This document shows, one piece after another, positions 5,627 through 54,989 of a stretch of DNA of 64,000 nt. Every line of letters begins with the position of its first letter. The first letter of the stretch is position 1. The notes beneath the pieces were generated by a model. The model had not been told where the DNA came from. It did no database searches and worked only from the letters and a program-made list of their open reading frames with translations. The DNA is from an uncultured Lachnospiraceae bacterium (lineage in GTDB: Bacteria > Bacillota > Clostridia > Lachnospirales > Lachnospiraceae), in assembly GCA_946623875.1 (NCBI GenBank), contig CAMORO010000004.1, positions 2,997 to 66,996 of the forward strand. The letters run 5' to 3'. The position numbers and the translations under genes are program-made.

Positions 5627-6073
5627 ATGACCGAAACAATAAAGATAACATATCTTTCGGACAAGATAGACAAGCTTACATATATAGAAGGCAAGTCGGA
5701 CTGGATCGACTTAAGATCGGCAGAGGATGTAAGCCTTAAAAAGGGCGATTTCCATCTTATCAATCTAGGTGTTTCAATGTGTCTGCCGGATGGATATGAA
5801 ATGCTTATCGCTCCCAGGAGTTCGACATTTAAGAACTTTGGCATAATTCAGACCAACAGCGTCGGCGTAGTGGATGAATCCTACGGAAAGAACAGCAGCA
5901 GTGATGTTCTCATGATGCCTGTTTATGCAGTAAGAGACACTGAGATACATGTTAATGACAGAGTGTGCCAGTTCCGGATAATCAGGCATCAGCCGGTTAT
6001 CGGGTTCATCGAATGTGAACCGACAAAAGAAGGAGAGGCACGCGGAGGTTTCGGTTCGACAGGCGTGAACTGA
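5627..6073 (+). CDS. dut: dUTP diphosphatase (trimeric dUTPase)
   Basis: Motifs APRSS, GVVDESY and RGGFGSTG. Confidence 0.9.
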   Translation: MTETIKITYLSDKIDKLTYIEGKSDWIDLRSAEDVSLKKGDFHLINLGVSMCLPDGYEMLIAPRSSTFKNFGIIQTNSVGVVDESYGKNSSSDVLMMPVYAVRDTEIHVNDRVCQFRIIRHQPVIGFIECEPTKEGEARGGFGSTGVN

Positions 6074-32508: not shown

Positions 32509-32544
32509 GCGGTTATAATTTTACATAATTGATGGAGAGTGTGG

Positions 32545-33915
32545 ATGATTTTCAGCTCCTTACTGTTTATATTCTGGTTTATTCCTATATTCTTTACAAT
32601 CTATTACATAGTCCCCGTGAAGTTTAGGAATCCGGTGCTTTTTGCGGGAAGCATTGTGTTTTATGGATGGGGTGAACCCAAATATCTGATCCTGCTTACG
32701 GTGTCGATACTTGTGAATTACCTGGCAGGTCTGCTGATAGACAGGTACAGAGGCCGTATGGACAGGGCTGTGCTTGTGTCAGCGCTTATATTTGATGTAG
32801 GAATGCTTTTCTTCTTCAAGTATATTAATTTCTTTATAGAAAATATTAATGCCGTGGCACACACCGGAATAAGCCCGGTTAACATAAGTTTGCCGTTGGG
32901 AATAAGCTTTTATACCTTTCAGATCATGTCATATGTGATCGATCTGTATCGCGGTAAAGTGGAGGCAGAGAAATCGGTGATCAGTCTCGGTACTTACCTG
33001 TGTATGTTTCCGCAGCTTATTGCCGGTCCGATCGTTGTTTACGGTGATGTGGCAAGGTCGCTTAAGGAAAGAGAGATCACTCCCGTTAATATTGAGGAAG
33101 GTGTCAGGCTGTTTGTCATGGGTCTTGGTTCCAAGGTTCTCATTGCGAATAACGCAGGTGAATTGTGGAATGAGATATCCGCAATTGGTTACGCCGCTCT
33201 GTCCGCACCCATGGCATGGCTGGGTATGGCGGCTTATACTATACAGATATATTTCGACTTCAATGGTTATTCAATGATGGCAATAGGACTCGGAAAGATG
33301 CTTGGCTTTGAGTTCCCAAGGAACTTTAATCTGCCCTATACATCCGGATCGATCACGGAATACTGGCGAAGATGGCATATGACTCTGAGCGGATGGTTCC
33401 GTGATTATCTGTACATTCCGCTTGGCGGTAACCGCAGGGGAAAGTTAAGGACCGTGTTCAATCTTTTTATAGTATGGTTTGTTACGGGCTTCTGGCATGG
33501 CGCGGACTGGAATTTTATACTGTGGGGACTTTATTTCTTTGTCCTTCTCATGATCGAAAGGGCCGGCTTTAAGGATTATCTTGACAGACATCCGTTTGTT
33601 TCACATGTATATGCCCTGCTTGCAATCGGCTTGGGGTGGATGCTGTTTGCGATAACGGATCTTAAGGAGCTTATGATCTATATATCAAGACTGTTTGTGG
33701 GTGGAGTATCAAATGAGATACTTTACTATATCAGGAACTATGGTTTCTTCCTGATACTTGGATGTGTGCTGTCGTCAGGTGTTGTGAACAGGCTGTACGA
33801 GAGGATAAAGAACAGAGATGCCGTAGTATTGCCGGTACTTACCGTGATCTTTCTTCTTTGTATTGCCTTTCTTGCCGATGCCGGATACAATCCGTTTTTG
33901 TATTTCAGATTTTAG
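32545..33915 (+). CDS. MBOAT-family membrane O-acyltransferase (AlgI/DltB/PatA-like)
   Basis: YWRRWHMTLSGWFRDYLYIPLGGNR and the catalytic-His region FWHGADWNF. Polytopic. ATG 32545 follows GGAGAG. Confidence 0.88.
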   Translation: MIFSSLLFIFWFIPIFFTIYYIVPVKFRNPVLFAGSIVFYGWGEPKYLILLTVSILVNYLAGLLIDRYRGRMDRAVLVSALIFDVGMLFFFKYINFFIENINAVAHTGISPVNISLPLGISFYTFQIMSYVIDLYRGKVEAEKSVISLGTYLCMFPQLIAGPIVVYGDVARSLKEREITPVNIEEGVRLFVMGLGSKVLIANNAGELWNEISAIGYAALSAPMAWLGMAAYTIQIYFDFNGYSMMAIGLGKMLGFEFPRNFNLPYTSGSITEYWRRWHMTLSGWFRDYLYIPLGGNRRGKLRTVFNLFIVWFVTGFWHGADWNFILWGLYFFVLLMIERAGFKDYLDRHPFVSHVYALLAIGLGWMLFAITDLKELMIYISRLFVGGVSNEILYYIRNYGFFLILGCVLSSGVVNRLYERIKNRDAVVLPVLTVIFLLCIAFLADAGYNPFLYFRF

Positions 33916-33957
33916 CTTAAGGCTTAGGATCTGCTGCATGATAAATCTGCAATTGTT

Positions 33958-35160
33958 ATGAACAGCTCCTTAGTGTTTGATTGGAGAAATCAGAAATTCA
34001 TGTTACAATATATTAGCCGTGTAAAATTCACATTGATATTCGCACTGATGGTGATATCTGCTTTCATCGGGTACCTGTTCTGCGCGGATCCGGTGTTTTC
34101 CGAGAGAGAAAACAGATTTCTTGCGGCGCGTCCGGCGATCACGCTGTCGGGACTTGCAGACGGGGACTTCATGAACCGGTTTGAATTGTATACAACCGAG
34201 AGGCTTCCGCTCAGAGACATGTTTGTAAGTGTGAAGGCTGCATTCGGGGAGATGATCGCTAAAAATGAGAATAACGGGATCGTACGTGGCAGGGACGGGT
34301 ATCTGTTTGAAAAGCTTGTTGCCACGGATCCGCAGCTTGAAAAGAACAGGGCATCAGTGCTCAATATGGCTAAGCAGACAGACAGAGAGATAACTGTCTG
34401 TATAATCCCCAACTCATTTGAAATTCTTAAGGATAAGCTTCCGGCAGGATTTCCCAATATACCGGAGGAAGAGATCATAAGGAGCTTTTATGATGAACTC
34501 GGGAAATGCGGTAATGTGCGTACCATCGATATGTATGAAGCGCTCAGGGGACATGAGGATGAGTATATTTACTATCGGAGCGATCATCATTGGACGACGG
34601 ATGGAGCATATCTCGGGTATCTTAAGCTGCATGAGCAGCTTTTAGGAACCGGTGACATGCAAGACGGCGGTGATATGAATACCGGGATAAGCCCTCCTGC
34701 TTATAAGAGGATTGAAGTACCGGGCTTTCTTGGCACATATTATTCCAAATACAGAGGTGTTTTTGGGGATCATTCCGATATCCTTACATATTATGATATT
34801 CCCGTATCCTCATATACCGTCGGCGGTATCGTTTATGATTCGCTGTACGACCTTGATAAGCTTGGCGCATATGATAAATATGCCATGTTCATGAGGGGGA
34901 ATGAGGGAGTTGCCGTTGTAGAGAGTGTTGATGACGGGACAGACAGGAAGGATGAGCTTATTCTTTTTAAGGATTCGTACTCCAATTGTCTTATCCCTTT
35001 TCTGACCTTTGATTATGACAGGATAACTGTAGTGGATCTGCGGTATTTTCCGGATTCCGTGCAGGAGCTGCTGGCCGGGAAGCCGGATGCGGATGTGCTT
35101 TTAATGTATAATTTTATGCATTTTAATGAAGACAATCATTTCTATAAGCTGGTCAGGTGA
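33958..35160 (+). CDS. DHHW-motif protein (AlgJ/AlgX/PatB-like periplasmic acyl-transfer partner)
   Basis: N-terminal TM and the signature YYRSDHHWTTDGAYLGY. ATG 34000 is an alternative start. Confidence 0.75.
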   Translation: MNSSLVFDWRNQKFMLQYISRVKFTLIFALMVISAFIGYLFCADPVFSERENRFLAARPAITLSGLADGDFMNRFELYTTERLPLRDMFVSVKAAFGEMIAKNENNGIVRGRDGYLFEKLVATDPQLEKNRASVLNMAKQTDREITVCIIPNSFEILKDKLPAGFPNIPEEEIIRSFYDELGKCGNVRTIDMYEALRGHEDEYIYYRSDHHWTTDGAYLGYLKLHEQLLGTGDMQDGGDMNTGISPPAYKRIEVPGFLGTYYSKYRGVFGDHSDILTYYDIPVSSYTVGGIVYDSLYDLDKLGAYDKYAMFMRGNEGVAVVESVDDGTDRKDELILFKDSYSNCLIPFLTFDYDRITVVDLRYFPDSVQELLAGKPDADVLLMYNFMHFNEDNHFYKLVR

Positions 35161-35182
35161 CCGGTTTTACTTTGACTGAGGA

Positions 35183-36364
35183 GTGAAATTGAAGGACAAC
35201 AACTTATTAAATTTAATAGTATCACCGGTCAGGGAAGGAATGTCCGAGGAGGAGAGGAAGCTTGAGGACAGGAGACGGATCATCAGAACAGCGTCCGTAT
35301 TGCTGGTATTGCTGTGTACGCTGTTTCTTGCGGTGGCTGCCGGGACAATGATAGCACTGTGGTCTACCGGTAAGACATCTCAGGATCTCTTTGCCGTTAT
35401 GAACGGGACCTATGTATATGCAAAGACACAGGAAGAACTTGAACGGATCAGATATGAGGAGGAGATGAAGGATGTAACTGCCGTGTCATTTGATGATGCA
35501 GGTGATGCATCTGCTGCCACAGGACCTGATGTTTCCAATGAGGTTGTAAGCGCAGATGAGGCTGTTCCGGCTCCTGACGGTGCACAGGAGGATACGGGTG
35601 AGGATGAGGAAGGACATGACGGGCTGCCCGATGTGACTGCAGACGGTGGAGACGACGATCCGTACGGAAGCGATGCCGGTGCACAGGATCATGCTGATGA
35701 GGGCGGCGATACCGATGCCGCTCTGTTTGAGGCTTCGGGTGTTAATGCCTATGTTGATCCCAATGTTAATTATCCGCTTCCTTTTACGACCGTTGATGAG
35801 AGCTATTTTCAGGATGCGCTTTTTATCGGGGATTCAAGGCTTCAGGGTTTTGGGATGTATTCGGGGCTGCCCGGAACATTTTATGCGGCAACAGGCTTTC
35901 AGTTGTATAAATATGATACGATGAACGTTGTTAACACTGACAGTGGTAAGGTTCCCATACTGAATGCAATTCCTTATGATACATTTACCAAGATATATAT
36001 CAAGGTGGGGCTTAATGAAATGGGTGGAAACGATTCGGCTTTTTTAAGCAAATATGCCGAATTTATAGCAAGGCTCAGAGAGGTTGAGCCCCGTGCGATC
36101 ATATATATTCACGGTATACTTCCGGTTACGGCAGCCAAATCAGGCTCGGATAAGGTGCACAATAATACGAATGTGTATGCAAGAAATGAGAGCCTGAAGG
36201 TTCTGGCAGCGGAACAGGGGGCATATTACCTGGATGCAGGGTCTGTATTTATGGGCGCCGACGGCTGTCTGCCGGCCGAAATGGCCGCGGACGGAATACA
36301 TCTTAAGGCGCAGTATATGGATATATGGAAGAAATATCTGATGGAGCATGCAATAGTATTATAA
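35183..36364 (+). CDS. Membrane-anchored SGNH/GDSL-type hydrolase/acyltransferase with acidic linker
   Basis: TM (ASVLLVLLCTLFLAVAAGTMIAL) followed by an Asp/Glu/Gly/Ala-rich linker. SGNH blocks FIGDSR, GLNEMG and DGIHL. The start is ambiguous (GTG 35183 or TTG 35189). Confidence 0.75.
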   Translation: MKLKDNNLLNLIVSPVREGMSEEERKLEDRRRIIRTASVLLVLLCTLFLAVAAGTMIALWSTGKTSQDLFAVMNGTYVYAKTQEELERIRYEEEMKDVTAVSFDDAGDASAATGPDVSNEVVSADEAVPAPDGAQEDTGEDEEGHDGLPDVTADGGDDDPYGSDAGAQDHADEGGDTDAALFEASGVNAYVDPNVNYPLPFTTVDESYFQDALFIGDSRLQGFGMYSGLPGTFYAATGFQLYKYDTMNVVNTDSGKVPILNAIPYDTFTKIYIKVGLNEMGGNDSAFLSKYAEFIARLREVEPRAIIYIHGILPVTAAKSGSDKVHNNTNVYARNESLKVLAAEQGAYYLDAGSVFMGADGCLPAEMAADGIHLKAQYMDIWKKYLMEHAIVL

Positions 36365-36383
36365 AATAAGAGGAGATGATATT

Positions 36384-36848
36384 ATGAAAAAGGATCTGAT
36401 TGTGTTGGTTTTATCGGCGGCTATGCTCATTGCGCTGGCAGGATGCGGCTCTTCCGGCATGGATGTTGACGCGCAGGGGCTTGCGGACGCGCTGAAAACA
36501 CAGATAGCATATGCTGATGATCTTGCACCTGTCGATCTTGATACGGCTAAGATGTTCTACACATTCGGTGATGCCCGGATCACGGAAGCGGTATTTTATG
36601 AAAGCAGCGGAGCCACGGCAGAGGAGATAGCGGTCATTAAGTGTGCAGAGGGCAAAGATCTTGACAAGGTCGAAGCTGTGCTTAAGACCAGGGTTTTGGA
36701 GCAGACAGAGTCATATAAGGATTATGTTCCGGCAGAACTTGAGAAGCTTAATGCAGCCGTCGTGATGCGAAAGGGTAATTGTGCTGTGTTATCGGTAAGC
36801 AACGAACCGGATAAGGCCAGGGATGTGATCGATGATTACGGTAAATAA
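36384..36848 (+). CDS. Small lipoprotein, DUF4358-like
   Basis: Lipobox LAGCGS, about 150 aa. The YESSGATAEEIAVIK region matches my unverified memory of DUF4358, which commonly neighbours DHHW/MBOAT genes. Confidence 0.55.
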   Translation: MKKDLIVLVLSAAMLIALAGCGSSGMDVDAQGLADALKTQIAYADDLAPVDLDTAKMFYTFGDARITEAVFYESSGATAEEIAVIKCAEGKDLDKVEAVLKTRVLEQTESYKDYVPAELEKLNAAVVMRKGNCAVLSVSNEPDKARDVIDDYGK

Positions 36849-36960
36849 ACCGTGATCTCTGTTATGAGGATATGAACCGGTGAAGTTATGTAAAGTGTTT
36901 TAACAGTATGAGATATTTTAAATGTATATACAATTTAATGTTTCTGAATAATATAGACTT

Positions 36961-37048
36961 AAAATACAAAAAATATAGATATAAAAATAAAAAATAATAA
37001 TAAAAATAAATAAAAAGTGTTGACAATTAAGATGCTCTGATATATAAT
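36961..37048 (+). promoter_or_regulatory. A-tract/UP-like block plus perfect consensus sigma-A promoter (TTGACA-17-TATAAT)
   Basis: 36961-37017 is almost entirely A/T with repeated A4-6 tracts. TTGACA at 37020-37025, an exactly 17-nt spacer, then TATAAT at 37043-37048. Confidence 0.75.
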
Positions 37049-37054
37049 CTAATC

Positions 37055-37488
37055 ATGAAGCAGGAGATTTAAGAAATCGGAAGTCGGAGGAACTTCAATC
37101 TTACATAAGGAGGTACGGACCACCGGAAACTTAAGTTTAGCTTTATAAAGATCATTACTTACTTTTATCATATGTTTCGACCGTAGAAGGGTGTCGTGAC
37201 TGAGGTTAGGGTCATAAGACACGGTATTAGAACAGGACACGCGATGCAAAGCAGACGTACATGAAGAAGGGAAGTGTACAGTTAAGTCCGGGTACCGAAC
37301 CGATGTCTGTACAATTGAATAGGGAGTCTGATAATTGATGGAGTGCAAGAAGGCACTATAAAATTTAACATAAATTACGACCCCGGAACAGGTTGGAACG
37401 GAAAGAGAGAGGTATAGTCCATTGGGAACTGAAGAGCAGGTATGAGAGCGGATGCAGACAGAGTTTAGTCGGCATCCGCTTTCCATTT
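37055..37488 (+). ncRNA. Candidate stand-alone large non-coding RNA (about 435 nt), family unknown
   Basis: It sits between the consensus promoter and a terminator. The longest + strand ORF is 25 codons and has no SD. The one strong AAGGAGG (37108-37114) has no start codon within reach. Hairpins checked by hand: 37065-37073/37130-37138, 37080-37084/37092-37096, and 37191-37200/37211-37222. The strand is purine-rich. Confidence 0.5.
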
Positions 37489-37490
37489 AA
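37444..37490 (+). terminator. Terminator hairpin ending the candidate ncRNA
   Basis: Stem gagagcggatgc (37444-37455) pairs with gcatccgctttc (37472-37483), including one G-U, and is followed by a short T tract (cattt). Confidence 0.5.
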
Positions 37491-37525
37491 AGGAGATGAA
37501 AACAGGCTGTCCCTGACCGGTCTTC

Positions 37526-37554
37526 TTGTGTGTGAACCTGTATTGTGATATATT
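37526..37554 (+). promoter_or_regulatory. Separate promoter for the amidase gene (TTGTGT-17-TATATT)
   Basis: TTGTGT at 37526-37531, a 17-nt spacer, then TATATT at 37549-37554. It lies downstream of the ncRNA terminator. Confidence 0.4.
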
Positions 37555-37582
37555 ATAGTATTAGAGGAAGCGGTTATTTGTT

Positions 37583-38995
37583 TTGCCGGGGATTTACAGA
37601 GGGATGAAGAGGATTATAAGGTCAGCTTTGGCTGTGCTATTTTTTTTGTTTATATTCAGGCCGCAGTATGTTACGGCATCTGACAGGGTAGTTGTTGTCA
37701 TAGATCCGGGGCATGGCGGCTACAGTGAGGATGCATCTGCGTACGGAGCGGTATATAAGGATGATCTGTGCGAGAAGGATGTAAACCTTGAGACTGCGTT
37801 TGCGCTGAGGGATGAGCTCCAAAGATACAACAATGTTGAAGTATACCTTACAAGGGAGGATGACCGGCGGCTCAGCCTTGAGGAAAGGGTTGACTTTGCA
37901 CTGAGCGTGGGTGCCGACGTTCTTGTGAGCTGTCATTACAATGCATCGGAAACGCATCTGTTCTACGGCTCCGAGATATTTACAAGCGCCTTTGGTTATT
38001 GTTATTCCTACGGAAACGGTCTGGCACAGTGTATAATGGAGCAGTGGACAAATGACGGACAGGCTTCCAAGGGAATTAAGACAAGGATAGGAAGTACGGG
38101 TGAGGACTACTACGGCATCATCAGGCACGGATGTGAGGTTTCTTTGCCTGTGATCATCATAGAACACGGGTATCTGGACAATCATGTGGATTACGAGCGG
38201 CTGGGAACGGCCGGGGACTGGGAGCGTATGGGCAGGCTGGATGCTACAGGAATTGCCAATTATTACGGCCTTAGTAAGGAACAGGTATATGACGAGGTAT
38301 TTCCTATAGTGGATGTTCCCATTCCCGATCATGTGGTCGAACCTGATACGACACCGCCGGGATACGTGTATCTTAGGATTATCGATCAGAATATCGAGAC
38401 AAGTGAAGTGGTATATGAGCTGAGTGCCAAAGAGAGTAACGGCAGGCTCATGTATTACGGTCTTTGTCTTGGCGAGCCGGAGGAGACGGTACCTGAGGAT
38501 TACGGCGATCTTATGCTGTGGGAAGAGGGGAAGTCCGTTATTACGGGTACTTACAGTGTCCCGACAGGATATCGTGGGAAGATCACCGCAAGGGTATACA
38601 ATAATTATGAACTGTATTCGGACAGTGCTCCGCAGGAGCTTGATTTTGCCACTCTGCTTGAAGAAAGGGCACAGCTTCTTGAGCAGGCTGCAAAGGAAGC
38701 GGCTGCCAAGGCGGAAGAGAGGAGACAGTCGCTGTTAAAGCGTGAGGAGGAAGCAAAGCTTGAGGCAGAACGTAAGAAGGAGAGGGAAGAGGTGGGCGAT
38801 TTCTTCTTCTTTGTCGGCGGAGAAAAAAAGGGTGATCAGGTTGATCCCGTCAAGGCCAGGCGGTCACTGTATATTGAAATAGTGGCGTTGGTCGTTCTGA
38901 TCGCCGTTCTTGTTTGTATCATTATCATAAAACACAGAAAAGAAATAATGAAGACCATCAGAAACATAGAGGGAAACGACTGGGATCGATATTAA
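37583..38995 (+). CDS. N-acetylmuramoyl-L-alanine amidase (Amidase_3) with C-terminal coiled coil and TM anchor
   Basis: Signal peptide, VVVIDPGHGG, and LVSCHYNA/IIIEHGYLDN motifs. Lys/Glu-rich helix (EERAQLLEQAAKEAAAKAEERRQ...) and a C-terminal TM (IVALVVLIAVLVCIIII). ATG 37604 is an alternative start. Confidence 0.85.
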   Translation: MPGIYRGMKRIIRSALAVLFFLFIFRPQYVTASDRVVVVIDPGHGGYSEDASAYGAVYKDDLCEKDVNLETAFALRDELQRYNNVEVYLTREDDRRLSLEERVDFALSVGADVLVSCHYNASETHLFYGSEIFTSAFGYCYSYGNGLAQCIMEQWTNDGQASKGIKTRIGSTGEDYYGIIRHGCEVSLPVIIIEHGYLDNHVDYERLGTAGDWERMGRLDATGIANYYGLSKEQVYDEVFPIVDVPIPDHVVEPDTTPPGYVYLRIIDQNIETSEVVYELSAKESNGRLMYYGLCLGEPEETVPEDYGDLMLWEEGKSVITGTYSVPTGYRGKITARVYNNYELYSDSAPQELDFATLLEERAQLLEQAAKEAAAKAEERRQSLLKREEEAKLEAERKKEREEVGDFFFFVGGEKKGDQVDPVKARRSLYIEIVALVVLIAVLVCIIIIKHRKEIMKTIRNIEGNDWDRY

Positions 38996-54635: not shown

Positions 54636-54989
54636 TCAACTGTCGGATATCCTCTGTTCGAAATCGTCGAGCATTTTGGATACCCGGGGAGATATAGAAA
54701 CAAACTCGCACCCGTAGCGGTAGCGGTTATCATCGATCGCCTGTGAGCGGATGATCCTTATATCGGTGATGATCTGCGGAAGCTCGCGATCCAGTTCGAT
54801 ATTTGAGATAAATATACAGCCTATGGGAAGGACGGCATCCGATATAAATCCCAGTCCTTTGGCCGAAATGTCAGTGACTTCGATAGGTGCCGATATGTCC
54901 AGCAGTGTATTTGAGCTTTCCGTATATAAGTCTGACACCGAAAGCTTTATATTGATCGGTATTCTTTTTTCTTTGCGTTTTTCGTGCAT
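54636..54989 (-). CDS. Single-domain PilZ c-di-GMP receptor
   Basis: RxxxR (RKEKR) and DxSxxG (DISAKGLG) motifs at the expected spacing. 117 aa. Confidence 0.8.
   Translation of the reverse strand: MHEKRKEKRIPINIKLSVSDLYTESSNTLLDISAPIEVTDISAKGLGFISDAVLPIGCIFISNIELDRELPQIITDIRIIRSQAIDDNRYRYGCEFVSISPRVSKMLDDFEQRISDS

Follow-up and report, generated by a model that had tools for sequence, protein, structure and literature searches.

In Proteobacteria, the RNAs CsrB and RsmZ bind CsrA, and CrcZ binds Hfq/Crc, through variable numbers of short sites. RNAs of this type (CsrB/CsrC/RsmX-Y-Z and CrcZ) are 110-410 nucleotides (nt) long and stand alone, each with a strong promoter, an intrinsic terminator, no open reading frame (ORF) and no fixed downstream gene; some have conserved far-upstream sites, and the number of motifs, which lie in or near small stem-loops, varies by lineage. 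Here we describe an element of the same general design in a 64,000-nt stretch of DNA (hereafter the window) from an uncultured Lachnospiraceae bacterium (contig CAMORO010000004.1 of assembly GCA_946623875.1), where positions 37020-37490 of the plus strand are a self-contained gene, predicted from conserved signals, for a previously undescribed family of non-coding RNA. It differs from the proteobacterial RNAs in its repeat, which consists of GUAC and RAAAGA and not of A(N)GGA (for CsrA) or AANAANAA (for Hfq/Crc), in having a large structured core (domain D2 and helices Hf and Hg, see below) that sponge RNAs lack, and in having no conserved GGA-in-loop sites. We know of no sponge RNA in this Firmicute family, the Lachnospiraceae.

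Comparison can also be made with large structured RNAs of Gram-positive origin. The raiA motif RNA (ModT) of Bacillota and Actinomycetota is abundant, stand-alone and structured, and its biochemical function is unknown (PMC10861870, PMC11706538, PMC12968392). The present RNA is likewise a stand-alone, structured non-coding RNA of Clostridia, and probably an abundant one, but raiA RNA is about 200 nt long, occurs in more than 2,500 species and has a constant architecture, whereas the RNA described here is 300-700 nt long, modular and found in a subgroup of Lachnospiraceae. OLE, ROOL and GOLLD resemble it in size range, in their Firmicute and rumen origin and in their many conserved unpaired nucleotides. 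Large Firmicute RNAs of unknown function form homo-oligomers (PMC12286853), as OLE, ROOL and GOLLD do, and the palindromic GUAC elements of the present RNA may make self-association possible. However, ROOL and GOLLD are tied to prophages or tRNA clusters and OLE to oapA, and our RNA is found with neither; it is also much more variable in length and has no match in Rfam.

The gene lies in a gene-free gap (36849-37582) between a DUF4358 gene (36384-36848, plus strand) and an Amidase_3 gene (37583-38995, plus strand). As claimed by the first-pass annotation, an earlier reading of the window made without database searches, this is the window's only large gap, and we find it to be the largest stretch uncovered by an ORF of at least 150 amino acids (aa); two other ORF-poor stretches of about 500 nt each (5627-6073, and 54636-54989 on the minus strand) hold small genes and are not non-coding gaps, one encoding a dUTPase-like protein of 148 aa and the other a PilZ-domain-like protein of 117 aa, judged by sequence alone. 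All the main elements that the annotation had listed in the gap are present, at or within 1 nt of the coordinates it gave. The sigma-A promoter, TTGACA-17-TATAAT (37020..37048), is as perfect as had been reported, scoring 12/12 in a consensus scan. All 12 distinct full-length close homologues share both hexamers and the 17-bp spacing without change, even as the sequence of the spacer differs freely, which is the signature expected of a promoter under selection. The promoter is also kept in the distant loci L048, L050, L053, L054 and L058 (loci are designated here by L numbers), and in L055 the -10 hexamer reads TAGAAT. Immediately upstream is the A-rich, UP-element-like block that had been noted earlier (36950..37017, GC content 0.21-0.28), in which Tandem Repeats Finder (TRF) detected three copies of a 21-22-nt period; the phased A-tracts repeat at about 21 nt over 36950-37015, and homologues are similarly A/T-rich 5' of the promoter, with a conserved AAAAAG(T/C)RTTGACAAT. 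Two boxes further upstream, AATGTATATACAATTT (36921-36936) and AATATAGACTTAAAATACA (36950-36968), are kept in close homologues, where their consensus, AATGTATAAACAATTT ... ATATATAAACTAATAATACA, stands some 90-150 nt 5' of the promoter. These boxes (36921-36968) may be sites for a regulator of the RNA gene.

At the other end of the gene is an intrinsic terminator (37443..37488), for which a stem of 12 bp had been proposed; the hairpin is indeed present but its GC-rich stem has 13 bp (37443-37455/37472-37484), and it directly precedes the U-rich tail UUUCCAUUU. The stem, GCGGAUGC/GCAUCCGC, is conserved in all lineages except L054, with 98.7% of the alignment cells paired, and its sequence is conserved well beyond the needs of termination. 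From the positions of promoter and terminator we infer a transcript of about 435 nt (37055..37490), with its 5' end about 7 nt past the -10 hexamer and its 3' end within the U-rich tract that follows the terminator hairpin. Another hairpin that resembles a terminator, though a weaker one (37504-37523, AGGCTGTCCCTGACCGGTCT with a T-rich tail), is found between this terminator and the promoter of the amidase gene, and a sequence related to it is kept in L001 and also in L003, where the RNA is absent.

Homologues of the gene are found in many lineages. A probe made from the amidase recovered 16 loci from species-representative genomes, all of uncultured Lachnospiraceae and mostly from the rumen. 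When these were searched by nhmmer with the gap sequence, a homologue search of the kind the first-pass annotation had called for, ten of the 16 matched with E values of 1e-30 to 1e-149 over the part corresponding to 37160-37490 of the window, and L014 matched in part. A DNA pattern that combined two invariant blocks and ignored synteny matched 30 metagenome contigs, 11 of which hold the RNA, the rest being chance matches. Altogether, rumen and gut Lachnospiraceae hold related sequences at no fewer than 20 distinct loci, and promoter, body and terminator are conserved together across many lineages. The distant copies sit downstream of DUF4358 homologues (47-53% identity) and differ widely in length, being about 525 nt in L048/L049, L053 and L058, about 360 nt in L050/L051, about 308 nt in L055 and about 700 nt in L054, so that the RNA spans about 308 to about 702 nt across the family. 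They barely align outside D2, the hairpins H1 and H2 and the terminator, and their alignment to the covariance model of the close homologues is unreliable because of large deletions. The RNA was not found beside the same operon in Anaerocolumna cellulosilytica (L047), in L056 or in L059, and as far as sampled the family looks confined to a subgroup of Lachnospiraceae with uncultured rumen and gut members. Viral contigs scanned with the H1 pattern gave 26 chance matches of Shine-Dalgarno (SD) type, none of which holds the RNA; with this negative scan, and with chromosomal housekeeping genes as neighbours, carriage by a phage or mobile element was rejected. One rumen contig joins a frame resembling mammalian LINE-1 ORF1p, that is, host DNA, to the RNA locus (L017:1231-2103, junction near 2105). 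Almost certainly the assembly is chimeric here, and the 5' end of the divergent L017 variant cannot be read from the contig.

The gene does not encode a protein. No open frame is conserved on either strand among the homologues, the longest open frames of the 13 aligned close sequences differ in strand, position and length, and the indels in this alignment are not multiples of three. On the plus strand the longest ATG-started ORF has 25 codons, as previously reported, but there is in addition a TTG-started ORF of 51 codons (37393-37548), which crosses the terminator and is not conserved. The SD-like AAGGAGG, located at 37107-37113 and so one base from the position first assigned to it, does lack a following start codon, and in no lineage is a start codon or frame conserved after it when the sequences are read, which ruled out a small ORF at this place. 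The minus strand carries a frame of 145 codons (37049..37486), and codon conservation in it had been named by the first-pass annotation as a possible refutation of the non-coding reading. The frame has no Pfam match and is not conserved, and L001 has it split into frames of 101 and 85 codons even though the flanking proteins of that locus share 91-97% identity with those of the window; we regard it as spurious and not a gene, and the non-coding reading stands. Long open frames are to be expected on the minus strand because the plus strand is purine-rich (A 0.34, G 0.27). Public hypothetical-protein calls with no Pfam match overlie the RNA at L051:3690-4061 (minus strand), L054:3898-4284 (plus strand) and 37049-37486 of the window (minus strand), and are likely to be annotation artefacts.

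Nor does the RNA belong to a known family. Searches were made with the 4227 models of Rfam release 15, membership being defined as a score at or above the gathering threshold. At these thresholds there was no match anywhere in the window, and at E <=10 the 751 nt from 36850 to 37600 gave only three minus-strand matches to eukaryotic families, which are noise: they score 15.2, 13.5 and 11.6 bits where the gathering thresholds stand at 40-75. Nine homologous loci, the 525-nt and 700-nt variants among them, returned nothing at E <=1 except the tRNA in L054, and ARAGORN detected neither a tRNA nor a transfer-messenger RNA (tmRNA) in the window. These results agree with the earlier failure to recognise RNase P, tmRNA, signal recognition particle (SRP) or 6S RNA by eye: RNase P RNA was ruled out by the lack of any RNaseP_bact_a or RNaseP_bact_b match even at E <=10, tmRNA by ARAGORN together with Rfam, and SRP and 6S RNA by the lack of an Rfam match in the window or homologous loci. 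Membership of the raiA, ROOL, OLE or GOLLD families, which had been left open, is rejected, since neither these models nor HEARO matched the window or any homologue. A type III toxin-antitoxin antitoxin RNA, in which direct repeats, each about 34-37 nt long, stand in tandem before a toxin gene, was rejected because TRF found no tandem array in the RNA of L054 or the window and because the downstream genes vary. Membership of the CsrB/Rsm-type sponges for CsrA was also rejected on motif content, as their many A(N)GGA sites in hairpin loops are not there: GGA occurs 16 times in the window RNA, where by our own arithmetic about 14 are expected from base composition, and 5 times in L048, and the conserved GGA lie in stems or invariant blocks and not in repeated loops. 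Searches of the literature on DUF4358, on Lachnospiraceae RNA motifs and on large Clostridial RNAs found no description of the RNA, and we conclude that the family has not been described before.

The RNA is independent of its neighbours. The amidase gene has its own promoter, TTGTGT-17-TATATT (37526..37554, plus strand, read from the sequence), which lies 3' of the RNA terminator; this promoter had been pointed out before, and L006 and L007 have TTGTAC-17-TAAGAT at the equivalent place. The RNA terminator of L004, L012 and L015 is followed by a convergent gene, with about 1.9 kb between the RNA and the amidase gene; bioY, which has a consensus promoter of its own, comes next in L050 and an Rrf2 gene in L055; and in L054 the 700-nt RNA is followed by a tRNA-Gly gene. 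The latter has a near-consensus promoter (TTGACA...TATATT) and adjoins the RNA (L054:4400-4545), so that two units of stable-RNA type stand side by side. L045, which overlaps L057 at 94-100% identity, differs in both of the usual RNA neighbours: this RUI289-like lineage has DUF4358 first, then genes for an FGGY kinase and an aldolase, a minus-strand lipoprotein gene and finally the RNA. In the RUI289 metagenome-assembled genome the amidase gene (L003) is located behind unrelated surface-protein genes and no RNA adjoins it. Taken together, the contexts of L045, L057 and L003 indicate that the RNA is retained when both usual neighbours move away. The earlier proposal of an independent RNA rather than a leader is therefore supported, the downstream gene varying among lineages. 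The usual DUF4358-RNA-amidase arrangement is thus lost in this genome (L003:1-3941 and L057), with very large surface-protein genes, rich in repeats, standing before the amidase gene.

Folding of the plus strand over 37052-37492 yields -120 kcal/mol and, relative to dinucleotide shuffles, a z of -4.18 (-2.68 for the minus strand). A fold was derived by hand from the alignment, converted to a covariance model (R1) and tested on 13 close sequences. In these, 96.2% of the cells pair; shifting the 3' partners by 1-3 columns lowers this to 29-45%. Both sides change in six pairs and 13 cells, compared with 1-3 such pairs in the shifted controls, and none of 500 shuffles reaches the observed covariation score. 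Invariant G.U pairs occur; on the minus strand they would be A.C mismatches, which agrees with transcription of the plus strand. The conserved core (37164..37490, about 330 nt) has a mean column identity of 83%, and R1 scores 320 bits on the window core and 294-360 bits in 12 homologues. It is predicted to be closed by two long-range helices. Hf joins 37174-37178 (GUUUC) to 37395-37399 (GGAAC), appears also in the minimum free energy (MFE) fold, and at alignment pair 15/246 is U-A in nine sequences and C-G in four. Hg joins 37189-37196 (GGGUGUCG) to 37378-37384 (CGACCCC), and two of its pairs change on both sides, L009 having CCG/CGG where the others have GUCG/CGAC. Both of the helices that had been traced by hand, 37065-37073/37130-37138 and 37191-37200/37211-37222, are in the sequence and the MFE fold, and the GAC at 37198-37200 fits two alternative partners equally well, a local hairpin or the GUC at 37306-37308.

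Within the core is domain D2 (37222..37297), with an outer helix CGGUAUU/GGUACCG (37222-37228/37291-37297) and an inner helix GGAC/GUCC, which enclose the motif GCGAUGCAAAGC (37241-37252) and a GUACA-loop-UGUAC hairpin (37257-37279). In the family as a whole, D2 is built around GCGAUGnnAAGC, and its GUAC-stem hairpin carries a purine-rich loop of URAGAA type. Compensatory changes occur in the outer helix (G-C to A-U in three sequences) and in the hairpin (37257-37261/37275-37279, A-U to G-C in three sequences). The same architecture recurs with other helix sequences in four further lineages: GCGCUU/GAGUGC in L017, CGUAAC/GUUACG with GAUG/CAUC in L055, and CGUAC/GUACG with AGAUA/UAUCU in L048, L053 and L058, and it is present in separate MFE predictions of distant lineages; the distant copies lend independent support to the fold. 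The loop of the 37257-37279 hairpin holds one of three AGAAGG(G) motifs noted by the first-pass annotation. All three occur, at 37185, 37265 and 37348, but only the copy at 37265 is conserved in homologues and the motif is not a family repeat.

Two hairpins of the same design accompany the core. H1, GGAGG-UACGGA-CCACC (37109..37124), has an A.A mismatch in its stem and together with the two preceding A residues forms a perfect SD sequence, AAGGAGGU, with no start codon after it. It is kept as AAGGAGGUAYRGWCCACC in L001, L043, L017, L048, L050, L053, L054, L055 and L058. H2, AGAGG-UAUAGU-CCAUUGG (37407..37425), is found as RAGG-URNNRU-CCAUUGG in every homologue, including the divergent L029, L048, L050, L053, L055 and L058, with CCCAUGG in L054. 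The pattern GAGGTRNNGWCC has two matches in the 64-kb window, both within the RNA, and the two hairpins share a common plan (consensus GGAGG-UAYRGW-CCACC for H1 and GAGG-UAnnGU-CCAUUGG for H2). H1 belongs to a 5' domain (37055..37163) that is present in the window, L001 and L043, takes different versions in L017, L048, L050, L053-55 and L058, and is absent from ten 'short' homologues; this domain includes the helix 37065-37073/37130-37138, which is in the MFE fold, and its AAGGAGGUACGGACCACC hairpin is among the most widely conserved elements. The block GAAUAGGGAGUC (37317..37328), apparently unpaired, is identical in all 13 close homologues and is partly kept as ACAAUURAAUAG in L048, L050 and L029, and hairpin Hd, AGUGC-loop-GCACU (37342-37346/37353-37357), has a closing pair that varies between C-G, U.G and U-A. 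The near-universal elements are the promoter, H1, D2, ACAAUURAAUAG, H2 and the terminator of conserved sequence. Some candidate helices were rejected: long-range pairing of H1 with H2, whose variants do not covary when compared by eye; the RNAalifold hairpin CAGUCC/GG.ACUG around H2, which is broken in L006 and L007 and impossible in distant copies; and a helix CAAUU/AAUUG around GAAUAGGGAGUC, which is uncompensated in L008, L009 and L010.

Between the fixed parts lie modules consisting of GUAC followed by a purine run (RAAAGA), of which there are 3-16 per RNA depending on the lineage. GTAC occurs 14 times in L048, 12 times in L053 and 16 times in L054, against 1.3-1.9 expected, and five times in the window RNA, against 1.5 expected, with three to five in RNAs of the window type, L050 and L055. 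In the predicted structures the GUACs pair among themselves and the purine runs stay single-stranded. Most modules read GUACRAAAGA, and several read GAGGUAC or AAGGUAC. No tandem duplications were found by TRF in the RNA of the window or of L054.

Our best reading of these features, which we consider moderately probable, is that the gene specifies an abundant, trans-acting structured RNA that serves as a protein-binding scaffold or sponge; confidence in the protein-binding mechanism itself is low to moderate. According to this model, the phased A-tracts and the consensus sigma-A promoter would drive strong transcription from about 37055, and the GC-rich hairpin with its U-rich tail would end the transcript at about 37488. 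The RNA would remain untranslated and exert no control over the downstream amidase gene. Its long-range helices would close a multi-branch junction holding D2, with H1 and H2 bracketing the core and H1 forming a sequestered SD look-alike, and the 3 to 16 'GUAC plus RAAAGA' modules would be displayed, in a number set by the lineage, between the fixed parts. The RNA would then act in trans by titrating an RNA-binding protein, as CsrB/RsmZ or CrcZ do. The two-fold variation in length and five-fold variation in module number round a fixed core is the design of a protein-titrating RNA, and it is for this reason that a scaffold or sponge is ranked first. Several observations should be set against this reading. 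Transcription, its ends and the abundance of the RNA are all read from sequence signals alone. The GUAC/purine module matches no known binding consensus, and GGA-in-loop sites of CsrA type lack conservation. The fold has moderate support from covariation, since the compared sequences share 83% identity and served to derive the structure to which their alignment was then fitted. When the D2 outer helix was tested lineage by lineage in manual partitions it was weakly significant (p ~0.02-0.5). The range of the family looks narrow, the RNA being absent at the L047, L056 and L059 operon. Finally, the few modules (five GUACs) and long invariant stretches of the window variant fit a specific tertiary fold, such as an RNA machine or an assembly of RNA only, at least as well as a sponge.

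This last point leads to the main rival, itself unlikely on balance, in which a large structured RNA owes its activity to its own fold, whether it is a ribozyme, binds a ligand or assembles with itself into a complex of RNA only, and the palindromic GUACs are structural or intermolecular pairing elements. It would account for the long invariant stretches in apparently unpaired regions (GAAUAGGGAGUC, UUAGAACAGGAC and AGUCCAUUGGGAAC), for the nested long-range helices with compensatory changes and for the predicted mutual pairing of the GUAC elements, and there is precedent in the homo-oligomers formed by large Firmicute RNAs (PMC12286853), such action having been shown or proposed for OLE, ROOL, GOLLD and raiA. 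However, a size and module number that vary more than two-fold by lineage would be unusual for a precise catalytic or assembly fold, the distant copies share little alignable sequence beyond D2, H1/H2 and the terminator, and no known ribozyme or ornate RNA family is matched. It is also conceivable, if improbable, that the RNA regulates by base-pairing or mimicry, with the SD of H1 (AAGGAGGU) and the GAGGUA elements titrating the 16S anti-SD or the 30S subunit, or with the RNA pairing to mRNAs. In this case the invariance of AAGGAGGU in every H1-bearing lineage, where no start codon follows, and the modules reading GAGGUAC or AAGGUAC would have an explanation. In addition, GUACGAGAG and GGUACGGACC resemble the sarcin-ricin loop of 23S RNA, which we take to read AGUACGAGAGGACC, and this could indicate mimicry of a ribosomal site. 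Against this, the ten 'short' species that have no H1 keep the rest of the RNA, the SD in H1 is predicted to be paired to CCACC, and most modules are GUACRAAAGA, which is not the sarcin-ricin sequence. A bolder and rather improbable reading would make the RNA the first member of a new class of modular regulatory RNA in Clostridia, in which a structured core bracketed by two SD-mimicking hairpins carries a GUAC/purine module array that varies by lineage and sequesters a global RNA-binding protein or a ribosome-associated factor, or it may be a mimic of the 16S anti-SD partner or the 23S sarcin-ricin loop that titrates a translation factor or a ribotoxin.

Control of the N-acetylmuramoyl-L-alanine amidase gene by a cis-acting leader, riboswitch or attenuator working through the 37443-37488 terminator is suggested by the position of that gene, which in the window and most close relatives lies on the same strand and no more than about 100 nt past the terminator. 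Yet the amidase has its own conserved promoter beyond that point, a convergent gene intervenes in L004, L012 and L015, the RNAs of L050, L054, L055 and L045 are followed by bioY, tRNA-Gly, Rrf2 or a minus-strand gene, the RUI289-lineage amidase sits elsewhere with no RNA, and no riboswitch family of Rfam is matched. A leader is largely refuted by the variable gene context, and we consider it very improbable; membership of a riboswitch or cis-regulatory leader class was rejected because no downstream gene is constant and the amidase and bioY genes have promoters of their own. Least credible of all is a very divergent housekeeping RNA (RNase P RNA, 6S, SRP RNA or tmRNA) or a protein-coding gene, whether the minus-strand 145-aa ORF or a small plus-strand one. 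The promoter is of the kind found at stable-RNA genes, the minus strand does have its 145-codon open frame, and RNase P RNA of type A or B is similar in size (about 350-430 nt) and in promoter type, with the short strings AAGUCCGGG and GAGGUAUAGUCCAU resembling what we take to be its conserved region I. These strings are misordered and misplaced in comparison with RNase P RNA, the region-I-like string being near the 3' end (37409-37425) and not the 5' end, and no equivalents of the P4 pseudoknot or of conserved regions IV/V were found. The covariance-model searches of the 751-nt segment and of the nine homologous loci, and ARAGORN, speak against any such RNA, and the ORFs are not conserved, are broken in L001 and lack a Pfam match.

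Upstream of the RNA gene, the DUF4358 lipoprotein gene is the final member of a cluster (32539-36848) encoding an MBOAT protein, a DHHW/AlgX-like protein, a GDSL hydrolase and the DUF4358 lipoprotein. The order of the four genes is strictly kept in all fetched Lachnospiraceae loci and extends to Anaerocolumna cellulosilytica (loci L047-L059), and the cluster looks like a cell-envelope O-acylation system. An exact look-up of the window's DUF4358 protein gave no record.

Orphan RNAs as such are not rare, but the set of features assembled here is unusual, combining a promoter that is both perfect and deeply conserved with a pair of SD-like hairpins and a module array that varies by lineage. With so perfect and deeply conserved a promoter, the RNA is likely to be among the most abundant transcripts in the cells that carry it, and current annotations either pass over its gene or put a hypothetical protein on the wrong strand. 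Metatranscriptome mapping, pull-downs and structural studies now have a defined target in this RNA family. Should the RNA prove to be a machine or a self-assembling particle, it would be one more orphan large RNA beside OLE, ROOL, GOLLD and raiA; as a sponge, it would be the first of CsrB/CrcZ style described in Lachnospiraceae. The Lachnospiraceae rank with the dominant degraders of fibre and producers of butyrate in the rumen and gut, and to our knowledge almost nothing is known of RNA-based regulation in them. If the RNA titrates a global RNA-binding protein, it would reveal a layer of post-transcriptional control in this family.

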